From a virus (Duplodnaviria; Heunggongvirae; Uroviricota; Caudoviricetes): DNA of 37,653 nt. The first letter of the stretch is position 1, and each line of letters opens with the position of its first letter. A model generated the notes under the pieces. It worked only from the letters and a program-made list of their open reading frames with translations, ran no database searches and was not told the origin of the DNA. Position numbers and translations under genes: made by a program. Where the stretch lies: the IMG/VR virus record IMGVR_UViG_2778261231_000003. The stretch is one strand, 5' to 3'. Positions 5,817 to 37,653 of this stretch are shown piece by piece.

Positions 5817-5993
5817 GGTAGATCTCCCTGACTGATTAGACTTGAGATAAATGACAGGGGATAAGTGAGATAATTATGGGAAGTACTGGGTCAACATGGG
5901 AAGAGACTGGATGGAATATGCAATAACCTTACAGTATGTGAAAATAAGACTGGCCCGAAAAAAACAGAACTCGCACCAGCCTGATTGCAGATA

Positions 5994-6383
5994 TTACTCC
6001 TTTTTCCCTGTATCGGCATCAGGTTCGCCATCAAACAGTTTGCCCTGCATCCGATCCAGTTCTTCTTTTCTGACCCGCTTCACCACGCTGTAAACCCACT
6101 GTAGTGAAACACCAAATTTGCGGGCCAGTTCGTGATGGTTGCGCCCGTCAAACTCCAGGAAAATTTCCCGGTCGCGCTGGCTGACCTTCCAGACCATGCC
6201 CATCGGAAAATAGACGTTTTGCCCACCCCAGACCTGCATCATGCGGTTCGCGACGGCCTGACCAATCTGGTCGGCAACTGCGGGTTCGATATCAATAATC
6301 TCGCGGACAGTCTCAGAGGTATGCTGTGCCAGTTCCACCAACAGTTCCGGCCCTTTACTACGAAACTGATTCAGGTCGCTCAT
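5994..6383 (-). CDS. Mor/C-family transcription activator
   Basis: GGQNVYFP and C-terminal HTH ELARKFGVSLQWVYSVVKRVR align with Mu Mor (from memory). ATG 6383 has a GGGAG Shine-Dalgarno and overlaps the GemA stop (ATGA); 129 aa. Confidence 0.8.
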   Translation of the reverse strand: MSDLNQFRSKGPELLVELAQHTSETVREIIDIEPAVADQIGQAVANRMMQVWGGQNVYFPMGMVWKVSQRDREIFLEFDGRNHHELARKFGVSLQWVYSVVKRVRKEELDRMQGKLFDGEPDADTGKKE

Positions 6384-6808
6384 TGCTTCACTCCCGCAGC
6401 TCTGCGCTGCCACTTCTTCAGTTTCTCAATCACGCTACTTGCCTGCTCATTGCTGAGCCAGCGTAACGCGCTGATGCCGGTTTCCCGTTTAACCCACAGC
6501 GCCAGCGCCTGCTCTGAACTGTCACGGACGATGCCTGCGGCAGCCATTTCAAGCCATAGCGCACGGATTTTCTTTGACTGCGGATGGCTGTCGAGCGGTA
6601 AGCCGGACTTGGCTTTCCCGGCAGGCTTAATGCGAAAGCCTTTCTTTTTCATTGATTCCAGCACGCGGTTTAGCTGTGGGGTATCCATCCCTTTGGTTGA
6701 GGCTTTGCCGGTCAGCCCCTGTAGCATCTGGCGGTAGGTGTCCTCATCCATCTGGAGGTCGCTGCGGGCAATATGAATGAGTTGAATAAGACGCTGCTTA
6801 GTCATCAT
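6380..6808 (-). CDS. GemA-like protein (Mu gp16 family, DUF1018)
   Basis: MMTKQRLIQLIHIARSDLQMDEDTYRQMLQGLTGKAS is the typical GemA N-terminus. Start at 6808 preceded by GGAG and overlapping the upstream stop; the ORF-track extension to 6997 lacks support. Confidence 0.7.
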   Translation of the reverse strand: MMTKQRLIQLIHIARSDLQMDEDTYRQMLQGLTGKASTKGMDTPQLNRVLESMKKKGFRIKPAGKAKSGLPLDSHPQSKKIRALWLEMAAAGIVRDSSEQALALWVKRETGISALRWLSNEQASSVIEKLKKWQRRAAGVKQ

Positions 6809-7013
6809 TGCCACTCCTTTTACCTGCGCCACCGATATAGTCGACATATAAAGGAAGCGCGACAGGCCAGCACAGGAACATAACGGCCCAACTGATCCAG
6901 TGTCCGGTACCGCTGTAACGTGAGTAAAACCCTGAACGGCGGTGCAGTTCAGCAGTACACCACCCCACGAGACCATACCAGAACAAGGCACATACAATTG
7001 ATTCAGCCATCAT
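6798..7013 (-). CDS. Small membrane protein (hypothetical, early operon)
   Basis: 71 aa with two hydrophobic segments; translationally coupled to neighbours. Confidence 0.5.
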   Translation of the reverse strand: MMAESIVCALFWYGLVGWCTAELHRRSGFYSRYSGTGHWISWAVMFLCWPVALPLYVDYIGGAGKRSGNDD

Positions 7014-35422: not shown

Positions 35423-36516
35423 CAGAACCCGATTTTATTGAACGCGATGCCGACAAAATCACGGCTGAAATGATTGCTCAGTACGAAGCCGCAACCGGCA
35501 AGACGCTGTACCCCGCCCAGGCTGAGCGCCTGTTGATTGACCTGTGGGCATACCGCGAAATGCTGGTCAGGGTAGCGGCGCAGGAAGCGGCCAAACAGAA
35601 TCTGGTCGCCTTTGCCCGTGAGCCGATGATTGATTACCTCGGTGAACTGGTCGGTGTTTACCGCCTTGCCGCGCAGCCTGCCACCACCACTCTCCAGTTC
35701 TCCGTGGATGAGGCACTGGCCATTGATGTGCTGATTCCGGCAGGCACCCGCGTCAGCGCTTCCGACAGCATTATTTTTGCCACCGATACGGACGTGGTGC
35801 TGAAAGCCGGATTGCTTCTGGTCAATGCCACGGCCACCTGTACCGAACCGGGAGCCGCTGGCAATGGCTGGCAACCTGCGCAGGTCAGTCAGTTGCTCGA
35901 TGAGATTGATAACGTCGACCTGCAGGTGACCAATCTGATGGCAAGTTCTGGCGGTTCAGAGCAGGAAGACAATGACAGGCTCCGCGAGCGTATCAAACTG
36001 GCCCCGGAGTCATTCACCAACGCCGGAAGCCGTATGGCATACCGCTTTCATGCCATGCAGGCCCATCCCAACATCGTCGACGTCGCTGTGCTCTCCCCGG
36101 TTCCCGGCACCGTAGAACTGTATCCGCTGCTCAGTACCGGCCTGCCGGAGGACAGCATCCTTACGCTGGTAGAGAGTTTCTGCTCGGACGAAAAAGTCAG
36201 GCCGCTCACTGACACCGTGCGGGCTAAAACACCTGTGCAGGTGGATTACGCCATTGAAGCCAACATCACTATCTATCGTGATCAGGATGCCAACTCGATA
36301 AAGGACAACGCCAACAGCGCCATACAGAACTGGGTGGCGTCCCGTACCGCCACGCTGGGGCGCGATATTGTCCCCAGTCAGATTATCAGCGTGCTGTCCG
36401 TTGCCGGAGTGTATCAGGTCGAACTGGTGACACCAGTGCTGAAGGTAGTGGCAGAAAACGAATGGGCAAACTGTACGGCGATCACTCTTAACATGACCGG
36501 GGTGTCCGATGGCTGA
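35413..36516 (+). CDS. Baseplate J-like protein
   Basis: 367 aa; overlaps W and I genes in the usual W-J-I order. Confidence 0.75.
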   Translation: MALTEPDFIERDADKITAEMIAQYEAATGKTLYPAQAERLLIDLWAYREMLVRVAAQEAAKQNLVAFAREPMIDYLGELVGVYRLAAQPATTTLQFSVDEALAIDVLIPAGTRVSASDSIIFATDTDVVLKAGLLLVNATATCTEPGAAGNGWQPAQVSQLLDEIDNVDLQVTNLMASSGGSEQEDNDRLRERIKLAPESFTNAGSRMAYRFHAMQAHPNIVDVAVLSPVPGTVELYPLLSTGLPEDSILTLVESFCSDEKVRPLTDTVRAKTPVQVDYAIEANITIYRDQDANSIKDNANSAIQNWVASRTATLGRDIVPSQIISVLSVAGVYQVELVTPVLKVVAENEWANCTAITLNMTGVSDG

Positions 36517-37087
36517 GCCGCTACAACTCCCGCCACCGCTTGAGGGTGATATCAGTCTCAGAACGCTGGGAAGACTCGCCGGGCGGCTGGATAACATCGA
36601 CCTGAGCGTACTGATGGTCTATCTCGTCGATATTGTCGACAGTTCCGCGCTGCCATGGCTGGGCGAGCAGTTCTCACTGTTCGGCGATGGCTGGGAGCTG
36701 GCGGAATCTGACGATGTACGCCGCATGCTTATCAAATCCGCTATCGAGCTGCACCGCTACAAAGGGACGCCGTGGTCAATCAGGGAAATTATCCGCCGTT
36801 TCGGCTTCGGCGAAGTGGATCTGATTGAAGGCACTGGCCAGATTGGCTACGACGGCAAACACACTTACAACGGGCTTTTCGTTCATGGCGATGCGGAAGC
36901 CTGGGCGGTATATCGCGTCATCCTTCAACAGCCCATCACTAACGATCAGGCGGCGCTGTTACGCCAGACGCTCGCTGCTTTTGCTCCGGCCCGCTGCCAT
37001 CTGGCAAGCCTGGAGTATCAGTCTGTCGCCATTCGCTACAACAACACCGCCAACTATGACGGCAGCTATAACCACGGGAGCAGTTAA
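36509..37087 (+). CDS. Tail protein I-like (baseplate)
   Basis: 192 aa with GTPWSIREIIRRFGFGEVDLIEG motif typical of P2 gpI-type proteins. Confidence 0.7.
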   Translation: MAEPLQLPPPLEGDISLRTLGRLAGRLDNIDLSVLMVYLVDIVDSSALPWLGEQFSLFGDGWELAESDDVRRMLIKSAIELHRYKGTPWSIREIIRRFGFGEVDLIEGTGQIGYDGKHTYNGLFVHGDAEAWAVYRVILQQPITNDQAALLRQTLAAFAPARCHLASLEYQSVAIRYNNTANYDGSYNHGSS

Positions 37088-37089
37088 TT

Positions 37090-37653
37090 ATGGCAAACCT
37101 ACCTGAAACACCGCAGTGGGAAGAAGGCATCTACCAGATTGAGGTCTCTGACCCCGTTCTGGGTGGGCCTGACGGAATCTCTAACCGTCAGGGTAAACAA
37201 CTGGCCAGCCGCACGCTGTACCTGAAGCAACAGGTTGAAAAAGGCGGTTCTGAACTTGCGAAACACATCGCGGCAGCAGACCCGCATACCCAGTACGCAC
37301 CGAAAGCCAGCCCGACATTCACCGGCACGCCAACAGCGCCTACGCCTGCAAATAGTGATAACAGCAAGAAGCTGGCGACGACAGAGTTTGTGGCCAAAGC
37401 ACTTGCGGTGCTTGCTGGCAGCGCTCCTGAGACGCTGGATACGCTCAAAGAGCTGGCTGATGCCCTCGGCAACGATCCGAATTTTGCGACCACGGTGTTG
37501 AACAAGCTGGCGGAAAAGCTGGCCAAAGACCAGCACGGCGCAGATATTCCTGACCCGGCGCTCTTTGTCAAAAACCTTGGTTTGGGGGAAGCGGCCAAAT
37601 TGCCTGCGATTAGTGGCTCTTTATCATCATCTGGCTGGATAAAAATCCCTGTT
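37090..37653 (+). CDS. Tail fibre protein, N-terminal part (3' end outside the window)
   Basis: ATG 37090; uninterrupted frame to the window end (188 codons) beginning MANLPETPQWEEGIYQIEVSDPVLGGPDGISNRQGKQLASRTLYLKQQVEK, the conserved N-terminal domain of P2 H / Mu S-type fibres. Not in the ORF track because it has no stop. Confidence 0.75.
   Translation, partial: MANLPETPQWEEGIYQIEVSDPVLGGPDGISNRQGKQLASRTLYLKQQVEKGGSELAKHIAAADPHTQYAPKASPTFTGTPTAPTPANSDNSKKLATTEFVAKALAVLAGSAPETLDTLKELADALGNDPNFATTVLNKLAEKLAKDQHGADIPDPALFVKNLGLGEAAKLPAISGSLSSSGWIKIPV

Follow-up and report, generated by a model that had tools for sequence, protein, structure and literature searches.

BcepMu, a transposable phage of the genus Bcepmuvirus (NC_005882), is described with genes 1–13 lying on its bottom strand, genes 17–52 on its top strand, an rve transposase of the Tn552/IS1604 type, a pac site that lies at its left end and a P2-like tail. 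Imperfect repeats of 23 bp have been published for BcepMu and for phiE255, and TG...CA termini were described as characteristic of the BcepMu family. We analyzed a stretch of viral DNA of 37,653 nucleotides (IMG/VR record IMGVR_UViG_2778261231_000003; its full length is called the window), for which an earlier reading of the bases, here called the original prediction, had proposed a Mu-like transposable prophage with a provisional left terminus at 5937. With a probability of about 0.93, we conclude that the window, from 5833 onward, covers the left ~32 kb of a temperate BcepMu-type transposable myovirus of ~34–35 kb that is apparently intact and was inserted by a DDE transposase into an e14-like prophage, at a point 16 bp upstream of the pinE start codon.

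That a Mu-like transposable prophage fills the window rightward was confirmed by the open reading frames (ORFs), by Pfam matches and by the annotation of a near-identical copy, i.e., the prophage in adiA of E. coli AW1.7. Genes between 5994 and 13829 lie on the minus strand and those from 13918 to the end nearly all on the plus strand (ORF map), which is the proposed arrangement of an early operon running from Ner to Mor and a late operon running rightward. The suggested likeness to BcepMu was borne out as well, as 34 of the 45 ORFs are collinear with BcepMu and the published layout matches. These findings support a transposable prophage of the BcepMu type that does not use MuA and whose early and late clusters diverge; it belongs to a prophage type that is already catalogued and occurs commonly, and nothing about it is new. 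Gene content and order, homology, exact ends, duplication length, many independent insertion sites and a conserved DDE triad were shown in this analysis.

The window from 5833 to 37591 is 99.98% identical to the AW1.7 copy, the shared part of which has no pseudogenes. As the original prediction had it, the right end is outside the window, and it would lie about 2.5 kb past the window end. As a right part of ~2.5 kb is not in the window and identity to the AW1.7 copy ends at 37591, one might think of a defective or truncated remnant, e.g., one that lacks its right end, rather than of a functional prophage. We consider such a remnant quite improbable, however, as all 45 ORFs are undisrupted and the 99.98% identical complete copy has both ends and the duplication. 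Moreover, the break at 37591 coincides exactly with an invertase crossover site, where identity should end if the tail-fibre tip is swapped or inverted, and copies of at least 99% identity occupy different loci from strain to strain, implying recent mobility.

Some points weigh against our conclusion. The right end and the second duplication copy of the window's own insertion lie beyond the window, so that its completeness and its CCTGAC duplication are predictions. In the searchable literature, we found no experimental data on induction or transposition of this E. coli lineage. For the Ner-like gene there are weak family matches and no BcepMu match. Finally, nucleotide similarity to BcepMu is patchy (blastn patches of 66–72% identity, ~12 of 32 kb), which suggests that BcepMu is a relative but not a close congener. 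The usual ICTV guide for a genus is about 70% nucleotide identity over the genome. NCBI files the related PhiKM (PQ738613) under Bcepmuvirus.

Left terminus and target duplication

From the break points of independent copies, we assign the left terminus to the TG at 5833, 104 bases left of 5937. The junction region contains the following features.

5827 to 5832, no strand: target hexamer CCTGAC, the predicted 6-bp duplication, whose second copy would fall beyond the window
5833 to 5878, plus strand: assigned left terminus, beginning with TG, with the tandem 23-bp units TGATTAGACTTGAGATAAATGAC and AGGGGATAAGTGAGATAATTATG; break point of all independent copies
5876 to 5912, plus strand: two left-end repeats, ATGGGAAGTACTGGGTC and ATGGGAAGAGACTGGAT (repeat ATGGGAAGNACTGG), 20 bp apart, found by a k-mer repeat search
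5937 to 5965, plus strand: motif TGTGAAAATAAGACTGGCCCGAAAAAAAC, the candidate terminus of the original prediction, in the spacer that separates the terminal repeats from the mor stop codon and thus 104 bp into the prophage

We compared 17 independent insertions, i.e., five E. coli chromosomal sites, 11 other species or metagenome-assembled genomes and one GenBank phage record. All of them break at TGATTAGACTTGAGATAAATGAC, the start of which is window 5833, and the copies begin with TGATTAGAC... at this base. In a search of window bases 5000–7000 against 5,426 complete E. coli genomes, prophage copies were found beside unrelated genes (narU, gadC, rlmC, dsdX, gcd, gspL, irp2 and others). Almost all matches begin at query base 827–834, i.e., at window 5833 or a few chance-extended bases off. 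The exact 23-mer TGATTAGACTTGAGATAAATGAC also occurs in species-representative genomes of the 11 other species or metagenome-assembled genomes, mostly named Enterobacterales and including the genera Erwinia, Pantoea, Mixta, Trabulsiella, Buttiauxella and Pseudocitrobacter; in each of these genomes, unrelated DNA lies left of the TG and conserved DNA right of it. Two GenBank phage records, one of them PhiKM, have non-phage DNA joined at the same TG end, their provenance being undocumented. Literature searches on the records Phi06_2974 B and PhiKM returned nothing usable.

The full-length copies (n = 5) begin with TGATTAGACTTGAGATAAATGAC and end with ...CATTTATCGCGCGGCGCATCA (also given as ...GCGCATCA). 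They split five different genes, and perfect 6-bp target repeats flank all five.

Copy in adiA: duplication GTAGCT
Copy in rlmC: duplication CCATAG
Copy in gcd: duplication CGTGAC
Copy in irp2: duplication GTTACG
Copy in narU: duplication CCCTGC

A right end in CA, as sought in the original prediction, was seen in near-identical copies, but the duplication next to it is 6 bp and not the expected 5 bp. In Mu, the target duplication is 5 bp. A literature search for the duplication length of BcepMu gave nothing usable.

The first 46 bp of the prophage consist of two tandem 23-bp units, and the right end, read as the reverse complement in 96–100% identical copies, has two units in the same register. 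The ends of BcepMu likewise have two 23-bp units in this register. A core G.G.GATAWWT at positions 10–20 is common to all ten units; in the window's left-end units the core reads GAGATAWWT. We presume that the 23-bp units are transposase-binding sites. Tn552 has two 23-bp transposase sites per end and duplications of 6–7 bp. Every relative, even the most divergent one (L018), retains the ATGGGAAGNACTGG repeats, and the right end lacks them; they are possibly a pac site or accessory binding sites.

The original prediction had read TG...CGAAAAAAA at 5937 as the left terminus. The string TGTGAAAATAAGACTGGCCCGAAAAAAAC is indeed present at this position, resembles Mu attL (TGTATTGATTCACTTGAAGTACGAAAAAAACC) loosely and is kept in most close relatives. 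A Mu attL-like terminus at 5937 with a Mu-type 5-bp duplication is nevertheless practically untenable, as conserved sequence reaches 104 bp further left, to 5833, in the 17 independent insertions, and as the duplications are 6 bp. Two left ends that are otherwise related, i.e., L018 and a contig filed as Klebsiella phage KP12, lack the motif. Moreover, CGAAAAAAA occurs twice in the window versus 0.4 times expected, and 10 of 100 shuffles reach two occurrences, so that its presence is not beyond chance. Because the transposase is unrelated to MuA, the likeness to Mu attL carries no weight for the terminus. The empty-site and junction comparison, which the original prediction itself had named as the check that could refute it, puts the boundary at 5833, still right of the invertase gene. 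We also considered the 5937 motif as a terminator downstream of mor and rejected it, as a search of 5700–6100 gave no terminator-like site.

The exact left boundary at 5833, together with the 6-bp duplication and the paired 23-bp units at each end, helps prophage boundary calling. As the family is common in E. coli and in Enterobacterales, accurate ends are useful for annotation; no open question is advanced by them.

Insertion site upstream of pinE

Bases 854–5832 of the window match six E. coli genomes at ~99% up to 5831/5832; these genomes are without the Mu-like phage and then continue into the e14 P segment. In E. coli 21EVA the empty site reads ...TCTGAC, followed directly by AAAAGC. The flank sequence in this strain is an e14-like prophage with annotated pinE, which leads without interruption to the invertible tail-fibre (P) segment with its crossover site. 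Judged from this comparison, the transposable phage landed between pinE and its invertible segment, flank base 5832 being 16 bp upstream of the pinE ATG at 5816. As the empty site shows the insertion upstream of pinE, the invertase gene (5262–5816) is not part of the transposable element, and we assign it to the e14-like element. The right junction is predicted to read ...GCGCGGCGCATCA (right end), then CCTGAC, then the e14 P-segment sequence AAAAGCAGGAATG (AAAAGCAGGAATGATGCC...). The window junction itself (36-mer, 5818–5853) had no match among species-representative genomes, and in no complete E. coli genome (5,426 searched) did a match span 80% or more of 5000–7000, i.e., the window's own junction was not found there.

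Could the prophage reach further left, so that the invertase, and perhaps the preceding low-GC genes, would form a Gin-like module of the phage? Just 17 bp separate the phage end from the invertase start codon, and relatives carry a Gin-like invertase with 69–74% DNA identity to it. The relatives' own invertase, however, is found at the right end on the plus strand, whereas in the six E. coli genomes the 854–5832 sequence without phage is an e14-like element with pinE and invertible segment. The GC content, moreover, steps at the junction from 0.34–0.46 (window 1–5832) to 0.50–0.62, with tightly packed genes on the phage side. Such a leftward extension is therefore extremely unlikely, and we keep to an insertion into an e14-like prophage with its boundary at 5833.

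After the insertion, pinE keeps 16 bp of upstream sequence, including its ribosome-binding site, and is now ~34 kb from the invertible segment that it serves. It is located directly downstream of the leftward early operon of the phage and on the same strand. No terminator-like site was seen from the mor stop (5994) to the end of the phage (5700–6100 examined), and the phage end has two weak outward promoter-like sites (5942 to 5915 and 5902 to 5873). Read-through from the early operon into pinE is conceivable, and the weak promoter-like sites could also drive pinE. Expression of pinE, and hence e14 tail-fibre switching and possibly that of the phage's own cross-reactive segment, could in this way couple to phage induction, although we think this unlikely.

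The e14-like flank also encodes a 274-aa GIY-YIG protein (4377–5201, plus strand) that adjoins pinE and matches the PADLOC model of the anti-phage defence gene PD-T4-3 (E = 2.7e-140). This PD-T4-3-like gene is outside the prophage and belongs to the e14-like element, not to the transposable phage. Further left, bases 1–4300 are low-GC island DNA. They contain a gene annotated as restriction endonuclease (3043–3954), a short tyrosine-recombinase gene (2234–2890) and a gene for a 295-aa protein with a partial PADLOC match to PDC-M01B (1223–2110). Bases 1–850 match the ykfI/yafW toxin-antitoxin region of other strains.

Gene content and proposed life cycle

The early region and its control site comprise the following features.

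5994 to 6383, minus strand: Mor-family transcription activator (Pfam Mor, E = 1.3e-42), last gene of the early operon
6380 to 6808, minus strand: GemA/Mu gp16 homologue (Pfam GemA, E = 9e-41; BcepMu gp02, 41%)
6798 to 9432, minus strand: semi-essential early region with DUF2786/DUF7168, a MazG-like fragment, small unknown genes, DUF3164 and a phrog_2041 gene
9435 to 10601, minus strand: AAA+ (ExeA-like, AAA_22) transposition ATPase (Pfam AAA_22, E = 3.2e-20; BcepMu gp08, 60%)
10612 to 12381, minus strand: DDE (rve-type) transposase of 589 aa (Pfam rve; catalytic triad D160, D254, E290)
12385 to 13293, minus strand: DUF3102 protein, promoter-proximal early gene
13303 to 13608, minus strand: winged helix-turn-helix regulator, promoter-proximal early gene
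13605 to 13829, minus strand: Ner/Cro-like small helix-turn-helix (HTH) gene, assigned by position and weak matches to HTH_35 (E = 0.0039) and phrog_769
13843 to 13901, minus strand: early promoter-like site TTGACA-16-TACAAT (13901 to 13874) with operator-like repeats CTGTTGGGT and CTATTGGGT
13918 to 14328, plus strand: CI/Cro-type HTH repressor (Pfam HTH_3, E = 9.9e-11; Phage_CI_repr), divergent from the early operon

In agreement with the original prediction of an rve-like and not obviously MuA-like transposase, rve was the sole catalytic-domain match in Pfam (E = 2.3e-7, slightly below the curated cutoff), and BLASTP found no similarity to MuA (best E = 3.1). Among solved structures (PDB), a sequence search gave only weak matches, which were to retroviral integrase cores (best E = 0.006), and a MuA chain was not among them. 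The transposase shares 68% identity with BcepMu gp09 and 57% with B3 transposase A; phiE255 and relatives from Ralstonia and Burkholderia match at ~69%, the B3-group Pseudomonas phages at ~57%, and further matches come from more distant phages. Residues D160, D254 and E290 are invariant in six homologues down to 32% identity. From their spacing of 94 and 36 residues, we assign the triad to the DD(35)E type. The adjacent AAA+ ATPase would be the functional analogue of MuB, to which it has a BLASTP match around the Walker A motif only (E = 0.22).

Mor shares 30% identity with Mu Mor (E = 8e-15) and 53% with BcepMu gp01, and on this similarity we regard it as a true homologue of Mu Mor. The labels of the early region were taken from Pfam, PHROG and the PGAP annotation of the 99.98% identical copy. 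Two members of an 85–89% identical E. coli sublineage (L005 and L006, 3674–4208) carry a Gam-family nuclease inhibitor where the window has DUF3164, and this swap points to modular exchange in the semi-essential region. Among the promoter-proximal genes (12385–13829), homologues of BcepMu gp10 and gp12 are present, and the repressor takes the position of BcepMu gp17. The region 13843–13901 is the best candidate for the early promoter; its promoter and operator function is proposed from consensus matches only.

The rightward part of the prophage is organized as follows.

14370 to 15715, no strand: variable cargo slot between repressor and holin genes, the content of which differs between relatives
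15963 to 17693, plus strand: lysis cassette with holin, SLT-domain endolysin and Rz-like protein (Pfam Holin_2-3, E = 1.5e-41; SLT, E = 1.8e-14; homologues of BcepMu gp21–23)
18326 to 26959, plus strand: Mu-type packaging and head module with gp27-like small terminase, TerL, Mu portal, Mu F, Mu G, protease/scaffold, major capsid and head completion
26949 to 37087, plus strand: P2-type contractile tail and baseplate with sheath, tube, E/E' chaperone, tape measure, U, X, D, V, W, J and I
37090 to 37653, plus strand: 5' constant part of the tail-fibre gene, running off the window, with a Gin/Pin-type crossover site at ~37565–37590

In the window, the cargo slot encodes a 175-aa protein on the plus strand (14364–14897), which had no PADLOC or Pfam match, and a D12-class (Dam-type) DNA adenine methyltransferase on the minus strand (14945–15715). 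In relatives, this slot (L004, 10342–10908; L005, 9441–11613; L006, 9534–13157) holds DUF2441, a protein annotated as 'ABC transporter ATPase' or other unknown genes. The head module was assigned from Pfam (Phage_Mu_Gp27, Portal_Mu, Phage_Mu_F, Phage_tail_S), from the phrog_976 protease and from 39–67% identity to BcepMu gp27–38. For the tail module, we used Pfam, 30–79% identity to BcepMu gp39–51 and the annotation of the near-identical copy.

Identity to AW1.7 stops exactly at 37591, the end of TTGTCAAAAACCTTGGTTTGGGGGAA. In AW1.7, the right end of the prophage carries an invertase gene and a copy of the crossover site in inverted orientation. By this comparison, the window copy has a different tail-fibre tip. 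That the last 62 window bases are the other orientation of the AW1.7 invertible segment was considered and rejected; they were not found in any of the loci compared, and the sequence beyond the crossover site differs from all these relatives. The crossover site closely resembles the e14 pix site, and the two invertases may cross-react.

From these genes we propose a life cycle in which the repressor/operator logic, replicative transposition, Mor dependence and headful packaging are modeled on the phage family and on Mu biology. The CI-type repressor (13918–14328) would keep the divergent early promoter (~13874–13901) off. Upon induction, the leftward early operon would be expressed, i.e., the Ner-like regulator, DDE transposase, AAA+ ATPase, accessory proteins, GemA and Mor. 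The transposase would bind the paired 23-bp units at each TG...CA end and, together with the ATPase, transpose the genome replicatively into random targets, with 6-bp duplications as the result. Mor would then switch on the rightward genes for lysis, Mu-type head and P2-type tail. DNA would be packaged by a headful mechanism from the left end, with flanking host DNA included, and the invertase would switch tail-fibre tip and specificity through the Gin/Pin-type invertible segment.

Relation to known phages

Related transposase genes were found in 639 of the 5,426 complete E. coli genomes (~1 in 8), with up to three copies per genome. The prophage in adiA of E. coli AW1.7 (NZ_CP073624) is essentially the same phage with the same left terminus and differs in insertion site and tail-fibre tip. 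'Escherichia phage Phi06_2974 B' (KM389306) is 99.1% identical over window 5833–25000, the part searched, and 'Escherichia phage PhiKM' is ~84–88% identical over most modules; both have the same left terminus. The record OM835952 (L009, 'Klebsiella phage KP12 clone KP12_2'), filed under Vequintavirinae, is a 96% identical copy of the window's BcepMu-type prophage and probably represents host prophage DNA that was co-assembled with a lytic phage.

Compared via its transposase, Pseudomonas phage B3 (Beetrevirus) shares transposase A (57%) and an adjacent ExeA-like B subunit on the same strand. B3, a siphovirus, has another structural module. With Mu (Muvirus), the prophage has in common that it is a transposable temperate myovirus with TG...CA ends, with homologues of Mor (30%), GemA, gp27, portal, F and G, and with an invertible tail-fibre segment and serine invertase. 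In contrast to Mu, however, it has no detectable MuA or MuB similarity (for MuB, Walker A only), its end repeats are unrelated to MuA sites, its target duplication is 6 bp instead of 5 bp and its tail is P2-type. Moreover, its early operon runs opposite to the late genes, whereas repressor, early and late genes of Mu run in one direction from the left end.

BcepMu shares the collinear gene order in two divergent clusters; the 34 collinear ORFs have 27–79% identity (tblastn), with 68% for the transposase, 60% for the ATPase and 79% for the sheath. Mor, GemA, DUF3164, the SLT endolysin, the Mu-type head and the P2-type tail genes are common to BcepMu, phiE255 and this prophage. The TG...CA ends with two tandem 23-bp units and a GATAWWT core are shared with BcepMu as well. 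The two phages differ in their hosts, i.e., Burkholderia for BcepMu and Enterobacterales here, and in early accessory genes and cargo, where BcepMu has an acyltransferase and the window a Dam methylase. Moreover, BcepMu was reported without a tail-fibre inversion system, whereas the E. coli relatives have, at their right end, both an invertible segment and a serine invertase.

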